A stretch of 64,000 nt of DNA from a virus (lineage: Duplodnaviria > Caudoviricetes). Within the stretch, counting starts at the first letter, position 1. Every line of letters starts with the position of its first letter. Both the position numbers and the translations under genes were made by a program. The notes under the pieces are model-generated. The model did no database searches. It was not told where the DNA came from and saw only the letters and a list, made by a program, of their open reading frames with translations. This document shows, piece after piece, positions 12,565 through 48,435 of the stretch. The stretch lies in the IMG/VR virus record IMGVR_UViG_3300038393_000457, positions 1 to 64,000 of that record. One strand, given 5' to 3'.

Positions 12565-13215
12565 CTACGGAGTTTTATTTTGTCTGTATATACTTTGAAT
12601 TCCATATGTTATTAACAAGTGTTCATTATTTAGTTTTCTTATTTTTGTTATACAAGACAGACTGATACCCAATTTTATAGACAATTCCTTTAGAGTCGTG
12701 ATGGTTTCTAATCCATCAGAGAATGTGATGGAATAAATTCCAGTTTTATTTTTTGATAATTTTTGACGACTTTCAATTGATTTCATAGGATTCTTATAGC
12801 CCTGAAGATATCTATTTTTCATTTTTTGGCTTAAGATGGCTCTCGTTTCGATGGAATGTTGTTTACCATAAAAATGATTTTTTATGCCAATATTAGATTC
12901 TGAATTCTTACGTCTATGTTCTTGTGTCTGTTTCTTTCCGAACATTGGGTTACCAGAACCTTTATTGCGTTCACGAGCTTTAGTCTTCCATCTCTCACTT
13001 TTTGGTGCTTTTTGGATTAATTTAATTGCTTCGGCTTGTGAAATTTGACTAGTTAATGATAACCAAGCTATTCTATCTTGTTCCTTACCATGTTTTTCAT
13101 ATAGAGCCTTATGACGCTCGGCATGTTCCTCAATTGTGATGCGTTCAATATTTGATGGAACATCAGTTCCATTCATATGTCTTGGTACAATATGATGATT
13201 ATGGTAGATTGACAT
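12565..13215 (-). CDS. HNH homing endonuclease with NUMOD3 repeats
   Basis: HHIVPRHMNGTDVPSNIERITIEEHAERH; NPMFGKKQTQEHRRK; start placed at MSIY behind aggaagga RBS. Confidence 0.9.
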   Translation of the reverse strand: MSIYHNHHIVPRHMNGTDVPSNIERITIEEHAERHKALYEKHGKEQDRIAWLSLTSQISQAEAIKLIQKAPKSERWKTKARERNKGSGNPMFGKKQTQEHRRKNSESNIGIKNHFYGKQHSIETRAILSQKMKNRYLQGYKNPMKSIESRQKLSKNKTGIYSITFSDGLETITTLKELSIKLGISLSCITKIRKLNNEHLLITYGIQSIYRQNKTP

Positions 13216-13237
13216 AGCTGTTATTCCTTCCTGGATA

Positions 13238-13270
13238 ATAGAGTTGGTGGGACTGGCATCCGCGACCAAC
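13238..13270 (-). promoter_or_regulatory. conserved structured leader motif upstream of a homing endonuclease (copy A)
   Basis: gttggt-cgc-gga-tgccag-tcc-c-accaac-tctat on the minus strand. Confidence 0.7.
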
Positions 13271-13307
13271 ATTTGATAAGTATACTTATCAAATGTAAGG
13301 AATTAAG

Positions 13308-17059: not shown

Positions 17060-17782
17060 TTAATTTATTATCTTTGCTTTCCAACCTCTATGTGGGAGAA
17101 TTCGTTCTCCCCTACATAGCTCCCTTATTCGACATGTATTTAAATTGTGATTTTTACAGAATTTATCAAGCCCATCATTAACAATATAAATTTCATTATT
17201 TGGTGATATTAACTCATAAGTTTTACATTGTCTTAGACGAAATTCTTCATTGTATAGCGCTTTACGTCTTTTTTCATTCCAAGGTATACCTTTTTTAATT
17301 TTTGATTGATAATCACACCATTCCTTTGTTTGTTTAAATCTCTTACCATACATGGGATTACCCTCACCGGAATATTTTATTGAGGCGGCTTGTTTTTGTT
17401 TTTCGGAATGTTTTCTACCATAATTTGGACTATTTTGACCTGTTATGGATATAACAAATTTAGAACGTAGATTTTGATAAAGACGGCTATTTTTTACTTG
17501 TTTCGTCCTTGTACACATGAACCAAAAAGCCTGTAACATTTTATTTTTATGGTTGTTGTTAATATAACAACATTTGGTAAGAATTAGGTGTGCTAGATAA
17601 TGTTCACGAAATGTAAGATTGACAATATTTTGATCATCGTCGGTACCACCCATTGATTTTGGAATAATATGATGAGCTTCAGTAATTCCTTTTAATTTCG
17701 GACGACCGATGGCTCTTGTAATGATTTTGTTGTACCTATCCATATATTTGGAAGGTATAAATATATCTGATTGCTGTAACAT
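17060..17782 (-). CDS. HNH homing endonuclease with NUMOD3
   Basis: EAHHIIPKSMGGTDDDQNIVNLTFREHYLAH. Confidence 0.9.
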   Translation of the reverse strand: MLQQSDIFIPSKYMDRYNKIITRAIGRPKLKGITEAHHIIPKSMGGTDDDQNIVNLTFREHYLAHLILTKCCYINNNHKNKMLQAFWFMCTRTKQVKNSRLYQNLRSKFVISITGQNSPNYGRKHSEKQKQAASIKYSGEGNPMYGKRFKQTKEWCDYQSKIKKGIPWNEKRRKALYNEEFRLRQCKTYELISPNNEIYIVNDGLDKFCKNHNLNTCRIRELCRGERILPHRGWKAKIIN

Positions 17783-30855: not shown

Positions 30856-31075
30856 GGTGGATGGCACCGGCGCGCGGCGGGGACTAAGGTATGAATTGGT
30901 AACATCTTACATGGAATAAATTTGCTTCTATGGTGTAACGGCAGCACGGTGTCCTTATAAGACATAAGCGGTAGATGACCGCGCGGAACAGGTTCGAATC
31001 CTGTTAGAAGTACCAATCCTGGAGATCGGCTAGATTAGCTGGAACGGCACGGTTCGAAACCGTGATCCACTACCA
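30856..31075 (+). pseudogene. Sec/Ser-like long-variable-arm tRNA split at the anticodon by a 129-nt insert containing tRNA-Ile
   Basis: ggtggat (30856) pairs with atccact-ACCA (31075); ggggact...aatcct anticodon stem flanks the insert. Confidence 0.6.
30924..31015 (+). tRNA. trnI: tRNA-Ile(TAT) with long variable arm
   Basis: gtgtc-cttataa-gacat; gcggt-agatg-accgc variable hairpin; ACCA. Confidence 0.85.
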
Positions 31076-35320: not shown

Positions 35321-35395
35321 GCACCGTTCGTCTATAGGAAGGACACTTGGCTTTCAACCAGGGCAGCAGGGGTTCGAATCCCCTACGGTGCACCA
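35321..35395 (+). tRNA. trnE: tRNA-Glu(TTC)
   Basis: cttgg-ctttcaa-ccagg; gcaccgt/acggtgc; ACCA. Confidence 0.95.
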
Positions 35396-35453: not shown

Positions 35454-35503
35454 GCTCGCTCGCCGTAAGGTGTGCAACTGATCGAAAGATCAAGCGAGCA
35501 CCA
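35454..35503 (+). ncRNA. 50-nt CCA-ended tRNA-minihelix mimic
   Basis: gctcgct/agcgagc + ACCA with two GNRA-capped hairpins. Confidence 0.6.
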
Positions 35504-35539
35504 ATTATAATGTCCCTATAGTGAAACTGAATAGTCAAT

Positions 35540-35617
35540 GGTGCTGTATCCCTCGACGCTACGAACGTCGTGAAAGGTAATTGGATCATGCAGGTTCGAC
35601 CCCTGTCAGCATCTCCA
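35540..35617 (+). tRNA. D-armless tRNA-Arg(ACG)-like RNA
   Basis: ggtgctg/cagcatc TCCA; cgacg-ctacgaa-cgtcg; only 7 nt between acceptor and anticodon stems. Confidence 0.7.
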
Positions 35618-36194
35618 TTATTCTATTAGGTTCTCCATATAGAAGCTTAATAGATTTTTTTACTTGATCTAATTTCTCCTGTTGTTTGATGACAACGATT
35701 GGATTCTTTGGATCAAGAAATATGTTAAGATTAGGAAGATAGAAATCTGGAAAGTATTTGTGTTCTTTCCCATTTTTATCGATCCAAGGAATTGATGTTT
35801 TTGGTTGTTCCCAAATAATATTGGCTTCATCAAGTAATTGGGCCATTTTTACTTCCCAACCAGAATCAAAGATAAAGTTTTTGTAAATTTGACGTTTTAT
35901 ACCGGAAGCATTCTTTCTTTTGACCGCGATGAAACATTGGTCAGAACAAGTTGTTCCAATTTTCTTTTGTGACGCAAAATATTTTTGGCATACAGAACAT
36001 TGTCGAAAATATACCTTGGAATTGGGTCCACAAACATGTCTCTTGCTGAAGAAGCCTCTTTTACCAATTGTTGTTGATTTTATCCTTGTATAATTACGAC
36101 CGCGTTTAAGGTTATTGTATGTTGCGGAACAAGATGAACCACAGAATTTTCTTTTTAATGGTATAAGTAAGTTGCAATTTAAACAATTATGCAT
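35586..36194 (-). CDS. PD-(D/E)XK-type homing endonuclease with N-terminal Zn-binding motifs
   Basis: CxxC repeats; DSGWE...KYFPDFYLP..NIFLDPKN. Confidence 0.8.
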   Translation of the reverse strand: MHNCLNCNLLIPLKRKFCGSSCSATYNNLKRGRNYTRIKSTTIGKRGFFSKRHVCGPNSKVYFRQCSVCQKYFASQKKIGTTCSDQCFIAVKRKNASGIKRQIYKNFIFDSGWEVKMAQLLDEANIIWEQPKTSIPWIDKNGKEHKYFPDFYLPNLNIFLDPKNPIVVIKQQEKLDQVKKSIKLLYGEPNRIMEMLTGVEPA

Positions 36195-36526
36195 TATAAA
36201 TCTCCTTCTAAATGCTAATTGTATTTAGTAAAATTTCGACTCAAGATGTGGGTTCGAGTCCTGCTAGGGACGCCATTTAAGAGGTTGTTATGACAGATTG
36301 GGGAACAGGTTGCACAGAGACGAGTGATGATTGTACTCTTCACAACCTTCATTGTGGTTATCCAAATTATCCTAAAGGTAAAAGGGATAAAGCAAAGATC
36401 AAAACTCCAACGGAGTTGATCGTGGAAAGAATGAGAAGTCTTGGTCTAGCTATCAATGACGCTCAGAGAATCGCCAATGAAGTTGTTCATGTACTTGGAC
36501 AAAATGGTTATTTGAAATAGAAATTT

Positions 36527-36606
36527 GGGGGACGGGACTGCTTGGGGTGGTCGTCGCACTTGCAATGCGAATATTCAGCAGGGTTCAAATCCCTGGTTCT
36601 CCACCA
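36527..36606 (+). tRNA. trnA: tRNA-Ala(TGC)
   Basis: G3-U70 pair; tcgca-cttgcaa-tgcga; ACCA. Confidence 0.9.
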
Positions 36607-37454: not shown

Positions 37455-37529
37455 ACGGGAGTAGCTCAGTGAAAGAGCGTCTGGCATCAGGTCAGAAGGT
37501 CGGTGGTTCAAGTCCATCCTTCCGTGCCA
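37455..37529 (+). tRNA. tRNA with apparent TCA anticodon (A33, G37); suppressor-like or degenerate
   Basis: tctgg-catcagg-tcaga; acgggag/cttccgt; GCCA. Confidence 0.6.
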
Positions 37530-37656: not shown

Positions 37657-37729
37657 ACACCAGTGTTCCGACAGGTAAGGGAGACGTCTTTTAAACGTCT
37701 ATATGTGGGTTCAAATCCCACCTGGTGTA
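37657..37729 (+). tRNA. trnK: tRNA-Lys(TTT) within a 21-bp inverted repeat, no CCA
   Basis: gacgt-cttttaa-acgtc. Confidence 0.8.
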
Positions 37730-38442
37730 CTAAGAAGAAATTTTTTCTTTACAGTATTATAATTAGCACCTCTTGGACTTTTTCCTTGTGCAATAAGATA
37801 TTGACGAATAGAAGGATATCCTTCTATTTCAATTTTCTTGGTGTTCTTTCTACGTCTTATATTTCTACCTCTCCATGTATCTGTTTGTGAATGACAATTT
37901 GGGCATAGAAATTCCACATTTTCTCTTGTGTTATTATGATGATTACCATCCTTATGTTCAAATTCCAATGTAATTGGTTTACCTAACCAAGTGTCATTAT
38001 GACATTTATTGCACCTATTTTCTTGATCTCTTAATACCTGTTCTTTAAGTTCTTTGACATATGATAATGGATTTCTTTCTCGTCTTTTTGCATGTTCTAT
38101 TTTCCATTTAAGACCATCCATTAATCTTTTATGTTCCATTGAACAAAATTTCTTTTGTTTTCTGCTAAGTATATTATAACAACCATCAATTCCACAATAA
38201 CAATTTTTATTATCTAAATCCTTTAGACGTTGGAAATTGTTGACTCTGGTGGAACAACTATTGCAGCAATATTTTGGATTTCTTGTGTTTTTGTTGCATT
38301 CTTGGTTCATACATTGATGTGGTTGTCTCATTATTTGACTTTCATTTTTTGTTATGTTAGTATTTACCATACTAAATAATTGATCAAAAGTCAATTGGAT
38401 ATTATAAATAGGATTTCCGGCACGATGTAATGGTGCCGCCAA
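37711..38442 (-). CDS. HNH homing endonuclease with Zn motifs (true start probably internal)
   Basis: RCNKC..W.GKPITLEFEHKDGNHHNNTRENVEFLCPNCHSQT. Confidence 0.9.
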   Translation of the reverse strand: MAAPLHRAGNPIYNIQLTFDQLFSMVNTNITKNESQIMRQPHQCMNQECNKNTRNPKYCCNSCSTRVNNFQRLKDLDNKNCYCGIDGCYNILSRKQKKFCSMEHKRLMDGLKWKIEHAKRRERNPLSYVKELKEQVLRDQENRCNKCHNDTWLGKPITLEFEHKDGNHHNNTRENVEFLCPNCHSQTDTWRGRNIRRRKNTKKIEIEGYPSIRQYLIAQGKSPRGANYNTVKKKFLLSTPGGI

Positions 38443-40531: not shown

Positions 40532-40613
40532 GCCAAGTTCGCATAGCGGCGATTGCAGCACTTTTGTAAAGTGCCATTCCACATCGGGGGTTCGAGTCCC
40601 TCACTTGGCTCCA
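40532..40613 (+). tRNA. trnT: tRNA-Thr(TGT), enlarged variable region
   Basis: gcact-tttgtaa-agtgc; TCCA. Confidence 0.9.
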
Positions 40614-42297: not shown

Positions 42298-42382
42298 GCG
42301 GGTGTCGGATAGCGGCTATTCCGCTTCCTTGCCAAGGAAGAGCCGAAAGGCATCATGGGTTCGAGTCCCATTACCCGCTCCA
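42298..42382 (+). tRNA. trnG: tRNA-Gly(GCC) with long variable arm
   Basis: cttcc-ttgccaa-ggaag; gcc-gaaa-ggc arm. Confidence 0.9.
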
Positions 42383-42632: not shown

Positions 42633-42716
42633 ATCGGTGCTAGGGTAGTGGGATACCTAACTGTCTCCAAAACAGTCGCCTAGAGCTAGGGGGTTCGATT
42701 CCTCACACCGGTGCCA
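42633..42716 (+). tRNA. trnW: tRNA-Trp(CCA) with enlarged variable region
   Basis: actgt-ctccaaa-acagt; GCCA. Confidence 0.85.
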
Positions 42717-46933: not shown

Positions 46934-47016
46934 GCACACGTCCCATAGCGGCCATTGGAGCAGACCCTTAATCTGTCGCGAAAGCATCGTCGGTTCGAGT
47001 CCGACCGTGTGTACCA
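46934..47016 (+). tRNA. trnK: tRNA-Lys(CTT), C33 and long variable arm
   Basis: gcaga-cccttaa-tctgt; ACCA. Confidence 0.8.
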
Positions 47017-47506: not shown

Positions 47507-48435
47507 TGCCACACAAAACGCCATATCTTGTCAGGACCGAAGTAATAATCCATCACGATTGGAATCCAGAATTCGATCAAGATGCCTTATGTGTTTGTGG
47601 TCATCCATATGAGCGACATTTCGATGGTTACGAAAATATGGAACCTATTGGTTGCAAATATTGCCATTGCCATATGTTTGGCGATACCGTTGAAAAATGG
47701 GAAGAAAGAAATAGACTGAAATATTGGAATGAACCTGAAAAAGAGAATTTGTACAGAGTCATCTCACTTCAGGATTATAAAGAAAAGATTGAGAAAAACA
47801 GACAAGGTAATTGGAATCTAAAATTGGGTCATGGATATCCAATGAAAGACGGTAAGGTCTGTTACTTGGTTTTCTTGGGTGCATATGATATAAAGAAGCT
47901 ACCGTTTGAACCAGATGCATATTATTGGGTGGAGGAGGATTGATTATGCCGTGGCCAAAGAAGTGTGGAAATGGACGCCGTAAGAAGGGTAAGAAGAAGC
48001 GACTAAAGGCCTGGAGAAACAGGAACAAGAAGTCATGATGGATCACGAAAAGAACAATCCTTATATGCAGGAAAAGTTTGATTACTTTCCTCCTGCGTAT
48101 AAGATGACTCCACAAAGTCAGATAGAATCATTTCAGAAACGGTTCAGATATTTTAACCCAAAGTGTTCAGAAACAATTTTGGTGAATGAAACCTATAAAT
48201 TTTGTGTGGATTATGTTCAGGATACATTGGAAGACCGGATTGGAATGATATGATAAACATGCTTAATTCTGAAGCATATAAGAATGCACCAAAATTAATT
48301 CAACGTATTTGGGATAGATTCCCTGATAAGTCGGAATTGGAACTCTGTGATATCCTTATCAAAATGTGGTCCGAACAACCAACCTATGAAGATTGGAAAT
48401 GGTTTGATGAAACAGTTAAACGATATTCCAAGTAA
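47506..48435 (+). CDS. hypothetical proteins (47506-47943, 48035-48253, 48202-48435)
   Basis: ORF track, coupled. Confidence 0.45.

Follow-up and report, generated by a model that had tools for sequence, protein, structure and literature searches.

A nuclease gene and a tRNA-Arg(ACG) gene of rewired architecture inside a broken tRNA-Arg(ACG) gene of a phage near the T5-like phages

The window analyzed here is a stretch of 64,000 nucleotides (nt), the first 64 kilobases (kb) of an 83.8-kb viral contig in IMG/VR (record IMGVR_UViG_3300038393_000457) with an estimated completeness of 47%. Gene content, including a T5-type DNA polymerase, a DnaB helicase, a ribonucleotide reductase, and a nicotinamide phosphoribosyltransferase, places the phage near the T5-like phages (Demerecviridae), and the transfer RNA (tRNA) genes of the contig give weak DNA matches to Demerecviridae. 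ARAGORN finds 31 tRNA genes, all of them on the plus strand and nearly every one with an encoded CCA. The minus-strand open reading frames (ORFs) in this plus-strand block are few and resemble homing endonuclease genes (12565-13272, 17060-17782, 35586-36194, and 37711-38442). The subject of this report is the third of these, which lies, together with a tRNA gene of unusual build, in a 709-nt cassette inside a tRNA-Arg(ACG) gene. The features of the locus are as follows, with their state in three related contigs (L288, L003, and L004) that carry the locus without the cassette.

35512..35529, plus strand: 5′ remnant of the resident canonical tRNA-Arg(ACG), tRNA positions 1 to 18; 18/18 identical to L288, L003, and L004.
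35530..36238, no strand: cassette replacing tRNA positions G19 to A38; absent from L288, L003, and L004.
35540..35617, plus strand: cargo, a rewired tRNA-Arg(ACG) gene of 78 nt with an encoded CCA, from a manual fold and a family alignment.
35586..36194, minus strand: free-standing homing-endonuclease-like gene of 202 amino acids, from its ORF, motif, and fold.
36202..36207, minus strand: Shine-Dalgarno-like AAGGAG, 7 nt upstream of the nuclease ATG.
36222..36229, minus strand: ACTAAATA, 28 nt upstream of the nuclease ATG and a candidate promoter element for that gene.
36239..36275, plus strand: 3′ remnant of the resident tRNA-Arg(ACG), tRNA positions 39 to 76; 36/37 identical to L288 and 35/37 to L003.

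The 5′ remnant consists of the acceptor strand, U8 A9, the 5′ strand of the D stem, and the D loop as far as G18, and the 3′ remnant consists of the 3′ strand of the anticodon stem, the variable loop, the T arm, the acceptor strand, G73, and CCA. An initial annotation, made from the letters of the window, had described them as the halves of a split tRNA gene. Both halves are there and match L288 as listed, while the borders drawn for them needed adjustment: 35530-35533 belongs to the insert, and the 3′ homology begins at 36239, not at 36243. The chance of a 7-base-pair (bp) complement within ~800 nt is a few percent, and we therefore sought the uninterrupted allele in relatives. Exact-match scans of IMG/VR with the outer and inner T-arm-plus-acceptor strings found no relatives, nor did peptide-seeded locus searches with the nuclease and two neighboring ORFs, and megablast against cultured phages found no close relative. 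The three empty-site contigs were reached through protein homologs of a small downstream ORF, which is one of three neighbors that served as synteny anchors.

35321..35395, plus strand: tRNA-Glu(UUC), upstream neighbor.
36290..36520, plus strand: ORF of 76 amino acids, downstream, which led to the empty-site relatives.
36527..36606, plus strand: tRNA-Ala(UGC), downstream neighbor.

L288 matches the window at 96.3% identity in 135 nt of left flank and at 96.6% in 294 nt of right flank; L003 and L004 are 72 to 96% identical in aligned blocks. All three have an intact canonical 76-nt tRNA-Arg(ACG) gene at this locus (56.4 bits with the Rfam tRNA model in L003 and L004), flanked by tRNA-Glu on one side and by the small ORF (76 or 81 amino acids) and tRNA-Ala on the other. 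An intact allele among relatives had been named beforehand as the check on the split gene, and it is present in all three contigs, one of them 96 to 97% identical to the window. By this alignment, the window is an L288-type allele in which G19-A38 (21 nt) has been swapped for the 709 nt at 35530-36238. The lost segment comprised the rest of the D loop, the 3′ strand of the D stem, position 26, the 5′ strand of the anticodon stem, and the anticodon loop. We conclude from the comparison that the two remnants are real halves of one gene rather than a chance 7-bp match and that the change is a replacement and not a clean insertion, in which the resident gene was destroyed and its halves left dead. 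Because the resident remnants are almost unchanged with respect to L288, the event looks recent. The window and the resident anticodon stem also share TAGTC, which was judged to be a coincidence because L288 sets the breakpoints at G18 and A39.

The position of the gap raises the question of whether the 709 nt are an intron in the anticodon region of tRNA-Arg, such that splicing restores the outer tRNA and the nuclease is intron encoded. Anticodon loops are classic sites of bacterial group I introns, and I-Ssp6803I, a PD-(D/E)XK enzyme that is a structural neighbor of the window nuclease (Z 5.1; see below), resides in such an intron. Joining the halves, however, gives a 55-nt RNA without G19-A38 and thus without A20, the 3′ strand of the D stem, and the anticodon. 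With Rfam, no intron family, group I or other, matches the window at E ≤ 1 or any of 20 loci of the nuclease family at gathering score; in addition, the nuclease gene is antisense and the insert contains a complete tRNA with the same anticodon. We consider an intron extremely improbable, and the initial annotation, which had seen none here, is borne out by the failure to detect intron RNA and by exons that are incomplete, 21 nt including the anticodon being gone.

The cassette has a GC content of 32 to 36%, versus 43 to 45% in its flanks. No terminal inverted repeats or target duplication were found at 35530/36238, and a transposon reading was rejected on the grounds that the cassette is without transposon-like ends. 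Like a free-standing homing endonuclease gene, it shows a presence/absence polymorphism, with the target intact in the empty allele of L288, L003, and L004. The promoter ascribed to the nuclease gene in the initial annotation corresponds to the candidate element upstream of its ATG. The motif WCTAAATA occurs 15 times in the window, versus 5.7 expected, and is also found 55 nt upstream of the minus-strand nuclease gene at 17060-17782; a TAAATA-type motif occupies the matching place at five related loci (L005, L006, L007, L208, and L290).

The 202-residue protein encoded in the cassette has an N-terminal Cys4 zinc ribbon, a second Cys4 zinc ribbon, and a C-terminal PD-(D/E)XK domain (E114, D150, D161, and K163), and the last 10 codons and stop of its gene overlap the cargo tRNA in antisense, at the T arm and acceptor strand. 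E114, P149-D150, D161-P-K163, K174, and both Cys4 clusters are invariant in an alignment of 30 homologs, and the motif residues align to the corresponding residues of T7 endonuclease I in PDB sequence matches. Pfam gives a treble-clef zinc ribbon match at the N terminus and two sub-threshold matches, to PF05367 Phage_endo_I (2.7e-5; 24.3 bits versus a cutoff of 29.1) and to PF08722 TnsA-like N (7e-4; 20.5 bits versus a cutoff of 26.5); a PF05367 match is precomputed for two homologs, P0017 and P0022, and the PHROG matches are to endonuclease I and resolvase families. As the Phage_endo_I and TnsA scores lie below their cutoffs, we assign the protein to the superfamily only and to neither Pfam family.

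An AlphaFold (AF2) model of the nuclease has a predicted local distance difference test (pLDDT) score of 87 overall and >90 for residues 100 to 190. Foldseek found no PDB match at E ≤ 0.001 for the whole three-domain model. In a structural search of 48,161 PDB representatives, the neighbors of residues 98 to 202 were mostly PD-(D/E)XK nucleases (Z 4.9 to 6.7).

TnsA: Z 6.7, root mean square deviation (rmsd) 3.2, 109 residues aligned.
NGO0050: Z 6.7.
VRR-NUC: Z 6.7.
Bax1: Z 6.5.
I-Bth0305I, a homing endonuclease: Z 6.0.
Vsr: Z 5.4.
I-Ssp6803I, a homing endonuclease (PDB 2ost): Z 5.1, rmsd 3.6, 86 residues aligned.
Hjc: Z 4.9.

These Z values are middling, and the fold assignment therefore rests on the consistency of the neighbors together with the motif. 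By motif and modeled fold, then, the protein is a member of the PD-(D/E)XK superfamily; the antisense PD-(D/E)XK endonuclease noticed in the initial annotation has an invariant motif, and its fold neighbors agree. The same matches could be read as pointing to a phage enzyme that is not mobile, either a Holliday-junction resolvase or a T7 endonuclease I-type repair nuclease, given that the best Pfam and PHROG matches are to endonuclease I and resolvase families and the PDB sequence matches are to T7 endonuclease I. They fall below the curated cutoffs, however, and cover the catalytic core only, while two further zinc ribbons are present in the protein. The gene is moreover missing from the locus in L288, lies antisense in a tRNA array like the other homing-type genes of the window, and belongs to a family almost confined to phage tRNA arrays, all of which makes a nonmobile enzyme of this kind very unlikely.

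The cargo tRNA folds with a perfect 7-bp acceptor stem (one G-U pair), U8 A9, five further nucleotides, a perfect 5-bp anticodon stem with the universal Arg-ACG loop, 19 nt, a canonical T arm, a discriminator U, and CCA. Where the D hairpin would stand there is a 7-nt linker, and a D-loop-like motif, TAAYTGGA, lies between the anticodon and T arms. ARAGORN, run with introns allowed, did not join the halves of the resident gene and forced the cargo into a 95-nt fold; we rejected this fold, which has acceptor mismatches, in favor of the 78-nt fold, with its perfect acceptor and the backing of a family. The cargo is the only tRNA with an ACG anticodon in the 83.8-kb contig.

TAAYTGGA was first noticed as common to the variable region of the first four copies. 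We searched IMG/VR with a pattern of the Arg-ACG loop, TAAYTGGA, and the start of the T loop at fixed spacing, in which no stems were included, and obtained at least 119 loci. Acceptor (7 bp), anticodon (5 bp), and T stems were rightly placed in 117 of the 124 pattern matches listed, and the seven failures are about the number expected by chance. The 78 distinct sequences that passed the stem filters gave an alignment of 85 columns in which 95.5% of cells pair and covariation is 0.838, compared with 0.213 in shuffles and ~0.1 for slid partners. Four relatives' rewired tRNAs score 31 to 37 bits with the Rfam tRNA model, versus 56 for the canonical gene.

The alignment contains a helix that had not been searched for, in which the linker after U8 A9 pairs with the strand just 3′ of the anticodon arm. 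Its first pair is CG in 64 sequences, UA in 7, GC in 6, and AU in 1, and its second is CG in 58, GC in 10, and AU in 9, with one exception; a third pair forms in a subset, and the range in the family is 2 to 4 bp. The helix is nested and encloses the anticodon arm, without a pseudoknot. The family layout is a 7-bp acceptor stem, U8 A9, a short linker, a 5-bp anticodon stem with the Arg loop, this covarying helix, TAAYTGGA, an A-U before the T stem, a canonical T arm, and CCA; the window cargo has all of these, with C-G and C-G as its helix, and fits every invariant column of the 78-member alignment. The initial annotation had described a D-armless tRNA-Arg(ACG)-like RNA. Such an RNA is present, although it is not simply D-armless; judging by covariation, its D stem and loop are rewired. 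Comparison across the family indicates that the cargo is a rewired, conserved RNA and not a decayed one.

We infer the following equivalences between the rewired and the canonical tRNA.

U8 of the rewired tRNA: putative canonical U8.
The two A's of the motif: putative canonical A14 and A15.
The GG of the motif: putative canonical G18 and G19.
The A after GG: putative canonical A20.
The A-U just before the T stem: putative A21-like base and U48 (the Levitt partner of A15).

The bacterial arginine identity set is A20, C35, and U/G36 (PMC9976931). C35, G36, and the A directly after the relocated GG are invariant in the family, and that A may be equivalent to the base of the A20 pocket. The anticodon arm suffices for deamination of A34 by TadA, and the anticodon arm of the cargo is standard.

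Most family members are ordinary units of tRNA arrays that lie directly after the CCA of another tRNA and are not accompanied by this nuclease. One unannotated rewired tRNA-Arg(ACG) is in an isolated phage, the Xanthomonas jumbo phage XacN1 (L289, AP018399.1, ~47,790-47,870), between ORF105 and ORF106. Phages of Rhizobium, Mesorhizobium, and Stenotrophomonas contain similar matches, likewise unannotated.

Conceivably, the inner RNA has no part in translation and is a decoy or sponge for a host tRNA-targeting defense nuclease, or just a 3′ structure or antisense regulator of the nuclease mRNA, so that tRNA-Arg(ACG) was simply lost. Phage tRNAs do counter tRNA-cleaving defenses (PMC13096335), the window copy has neither a D hairpin nor an Rfam match, and its antisense overlap with the nuclease ORF could regulate. 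The positions conserved in the family are, however, those needed for the L shape and for arginine identity (the equivalents of U8, A14, A15, G18, G19, A20, and U48, and C35 and G36), the encoded CCA, 7-bp acceptor stem, and canonical T loop are kept family-wide, and the ordinary place of most members in tRNA arrays also tells against a decoy. We therefore give a nontranslational role only a small chance and think it probable, from these conserved features, that the cargo is a working tRNA.

To see how the nuclease and the rewired tRNA are associated, we compared nine loci from different samples and phages (the window, L005, L006, L007, L134, L208, L209, L290, and L291), whose nucleases are 43 to 63% identical to that of the window. 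A rewired tRNA-Arg(ACG) adjoins the nuclease gene in antisense at 9/9 loci, and the 3′ end of the nuclease ORF overlaps the tRNA's 3′ end at eight of them, the tRNA lying on the promoter side in L290. The stems of the nine tRNAs vary by compensatory changes. Many proteins of the family end in G-F/L-E-P, an antisense reading of the T arm, and the overlap is therefore visible from the protein alignment alone. Close by, on the far side of the TAAATA-type motif upstream of the nuclease gene, 7/9 loci have a leftover tRNA T arm, in most cases along with its acceptor strand and CCA. L005 has a matching 5′ half as well, with a complementary acceptor strand and the same D-loop end as in the window; in L007, L134, and L208, with their short contigs or degraded sequence, no 5′ half was found. 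These comparisons identify the nuclease and its cargo as a conserved unit that recurs inside wrecked tRNA genes, in keeping with the earlier proposal of a mobile tRNA-plus-nuclease unit: the pair recurs at nine loci, most of them beside leftover tRNA pieces.

Just past the nuclease start in L007 (reverse strand) there is a minihelix-like remnant, in the order 7-nt strand, 17 nt, T arm, and complementary 7-nt strand, which resembles a tRNA gene minus its D and anticodon arms. On the reverse strand of L209, the rewired tRNA-Arg(ACG) is preceded, ~100 nt upstream, by another tRNA of rewired type in tandem, which shares the D-loop motif ahead of its T arm and has the anticodon loop CCGCGAA.

Distant relatives of the nuclease (27 to 45% identity) also lie in phage tRNA arrays, mostly co-oriented and with other tRNA types, and are sometimes flanked by two tRNAs with the same anticodon. 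The repeated tRNA is Leu-UAG in L130 and Pro-UGG in L137 and L128, and one copy is often oddly built, an example being a tRNA-Pro of 93 nt in which a long insert precedes the T arm. These three loci suggest that a spare-part strategy may reach other tRNA types. Near co-oriented members of the nuclease family, a relaxed rewired-tRNA pattern gives matches, which are pattern matches only, with GAU and UCU anticodons (L138-L140, ~2685-2732 in L138, and L207, 1163-1212).

The two parts of the cassette might have arrived separately, a rewired tRNA replacing the resident core first and a nuclease without specificity for tRNA-Arg(ACG) landing downstream later. Such a history would suit the occurrence of the rewired tRNA in >100 phage contigs without this nuclease, the many other tRNA types adjoining distant nuclease relatives, the frequency with which nuclease genes land in tRNA arrays, and the example of SegB, which recognizes a generic T-arm motif and cuts many tRNA genes (PMC2330249). 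It is harder to reconcile with L288, which lacks both parts together, and with a pair that is adjacent at nine loci, with the same 3′ overlap at eight, despite 43 to 63% nuclease identity and compensatory changes in the tRNA. Leftover tRNA pieces, furthermore, are found at the outer edges of the pair and not between its genes. Arrival in two steps thus seems unlikely.

The interpretation that we favor is that a nuclease-tRNA cassette replaced and destroyed the resident tRNA-Arg(ACG) gene, with the nuclease homing there and the cargo substituting for what was lost, and we consider this likely as a whole. The replacement by a mobile unit is its most secure part and very likely correct; that tRNA-Arg(ACG) is the target of the nuclease is somewhat better than an even proposition. 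In a mixed infection, the nuclease would cut cassette-free, L288-type tRNA-Arg(ACG) alleles within or beside G19-A38, the segment missing from the filled allele. Double-strand-break repair would then copy the cassette from the coinfecting donor, with the conserved tRNA-gene flanks as short homology arms, and the cargo tRNA would maintain CGU/CGC/CGA decoding. In the non-cloverleaf design of the cargo, the linker that follows U8 A9 pairs with the strand immediately 3′ of the anticodon arm as a D-like stem of 2 to 4 bp, after which the D-loop motif (the A14, A15, G18, G19, and A20 equivalents) runs directly into the T arm. The cargo gene itself would be uncuttable because its D-loop and anticodon segments stand in a different order and at a different spacing. 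By supplying the function, the cargo would thus let the element avoid the cost of breaking its target without a self-splicing intron.

Taken further, nuclease and rewired tRNA would form a "poison and immune spare part" drive at the level of DNA, a possibility that we put forward tentatively and rate as less likely than not. Canonical tRNA-Arg(ACG) genes would then be destroyed while the re-ordered cargo gene escapes recognition, leaving the cassette as sole survivor.

Several observations weigh against the interpretation that we favor. The contig is ~47% of a genome, so that a further tRNA-Arg(ACG) may lie elsewhere. The window cargo has no match to the Rfam tRNA model (RF00005) at E ≤ 1 (the cutoff is 29 bits), single-sequence folding energies are unremarkable (z of −0.73 and +0.58), and the D-like helix in the window cargo is only 2 bp long. 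Some cargo genes retain the D-loop heptamer of the resident gene, and immunity must therefore depend on context. The window and L005 have different flanking acceptor stems, and spread between lineages would therefore need very short homologies or a nonhomologous step, and the left and right flanking pieces of L006 cannot be paired into one tRNA. Finally, a nuclease homolog is near only 9 of the ~117 IMG/VR pattern loci listed, and none of these homologs overlaps the tRNA. The rewired tRNA is far more widespread than the nuclease, and its design therefore need not have arisen as immunity to it.

The nearest parallels are free-standing nucleases of other phages. SegB of T4/T6, a GIY-YIG enzyme, recognizes a T-arm motif and cuts the tRNA genes of phages that are without SegB, dragging neighboring tRNAs along (PMC2330249); its homologs are enriched beside tRNAs and can amplify tRNA genes (PMC13096335). 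T5 has HNH enzymes (F-Tfl) in its tRNA region (cited in PMC2330249). The window element resembles SegB and F-Tfl in being a nuclease gene of this kind in a phage tRNA array with no intron, and it would resemble them also in having targets in phages that do not have the gene and in spreading together with neighboring tRNA genes. Whereas SegB sits between intact tRNA genes and has a generic T-arm target, the window element is inside one destroyed tRNA gene, and unlike both it has a PD-(D/E)XK domain with two zinc ribbons and carries a substitute with the same anticodon and altered architecture.

I-Ssp6803I is likewise a PD-(D/E)XK homing nuclease at the anticodon region of a tRNA, in the group I intron of cyanobacterial tRNA-fMet. 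It is intron encoded, however, and splicing restores its target, whereas in the window there is no intron, the target is broken, and a second gene would supply the function; I-Ssp6803I also has no zinc ribbons and no detectable sequence relationship to the window nuclease. T7 endonuclease I and Tn7 TnsA share with the window nuclease the E ... PD ... D/E-x-K layout, the fold class, and weak sequence matches. They differ from it in domain architecture, context, and presumed substrate, which would be a specific duplex site for the window nuclease and is junctions or transposon ends for the other two. Elements that integrate at tRNA genes, such as prophages and genomic islands, bring with them a copy of the gene end that they disrupt. 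They too are mobile elements in a tRNA gene that supply sequence preserving tRNA function, but they rely on an integrase and restore the same gene out of a duplicate of its 3′ end, whereas the cassette brings a whole, differently built gene and both halves of the old one are dead.

With canonical tRNA-Arg(ACG) (RF00005), the cargo shares the anticodon loop, the 7-bp acceptor stem, the T arm, CCA, and a D-loop motif with GG and an A20-like base; it differs in having no D hairpin, with one D-stem strand and the D loop lying 3′ of the anticodon arm. D-armless tRNAs of metazoan mitochondria, such as Ascaris tRNA-Ser(UCU), likewise have no D hairpin between the acceptor and anticodon stems (PMC7609411). 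Those tRNAs lose D-loop elements and need adapted partner proteins (PMC7609411), whereas in the rewired family a D-loop motif and a covarying D-like stem are retained, though re-ordered, the T arm is standard, and the tRNA would function in bacterial cells. A 2020 review of noncanonical tRNAs mentions no phage case (PMC7609411), and such a non-cloverleaf tRNA is not anticipated for bacterial systems in the current literature (PMC11551756). Our full-text literature search, which had partial coverage, found neither a nuclease cassette that destroys a tRNA gene while carrying a substitute nor a tRNA with such a rewired core. What is new here is an endonuclease I/TnsA-like nuclease with two zinc ribbons that overlaps its cargo in antisense, together with an empty site at the strain level.

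As far as we know, homing endonucleases are thought to enter essential genes only behind an intron or intein and otherwise to settle harmlessly between genes. The comparisons made here support reading the locus as a homing endonuclease gene that carries a functional spare part, with no intron, along with a tRNA whose core is re-ordered. It seems that homing genes can enter an RNA gene with no intron involved; this would be a third route for them, that of breaking the target and bringing a differently built copy of the same function. The presence of the canonical gene and of its rewired replacement at one locus in sister phages offers a defined genetic setting. The rewired arginine tRNA escapes standard tRNA finders, and if the cargo is charged and used, textbook rules on tRNA architecture, on recognition by arginyl-tRNA synthetase (ArgRS), and on the annotation of phage tRNAs would need amending. 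If the tentative drive holds, nucleases that target tRNA genes would drive, or at least maintain, a non-cloverleaf tRNA, which would be the first natural one to work with the bacterial translation machinery.

A second antisense nuclease gene of the window, at 37711-38442 (minus strand), encodes an HNH protein of 243 amino acids. Its 3′ end overlaps that of tRNA-Lys(UUU) (37657-37730, plus strand) by 20 nt, and this tail-to-tail layout is the same as that of the 202-residue nuclease and its cargo tRNA.

Directly 5′ of the split tRNA gene, at 35454-35503, is a mini tRNA-like element with a 7-bp acceptor-like stem that ends in ACCA and encloses two 4-bp hairpins, without an anticodon arm. Both hairpins are capped by GNRA tetraloops and are separated by a 7-nt linker (minimum free energy of −16.2, z of −2.36). 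The element is found in L288 and not in L003 or L004. Those two contigs have an 84-nt segment directly after tRNA-Glu (L003:562-645) that ends in CCAACCA, has no counterpart in the window, and may represent a further tRNA-like RNA.

Several class I tRNAs of the window (Phe, Ile-UAU, Thr-UGU, Gly-GCC, Trp, and Lys-CUU; genes of 82 to 98 nt at 935-1032, 30924-31015, 40532-40613, 42298-42382, 42633-42716, and 46934-47016) have long variable regions of 11 to 12 nt or with an extra arm of 3 to 5 bp. A 75-nt class I tRNA at 37455-37529 has the anticodon UCA and is labeled "SeC" by ARAGORN (Rfam tRNA, 50.9 bits). It has A in place of U at position 33 and may serve in opal suppression or recoding; L003 is 96% identical in this region.

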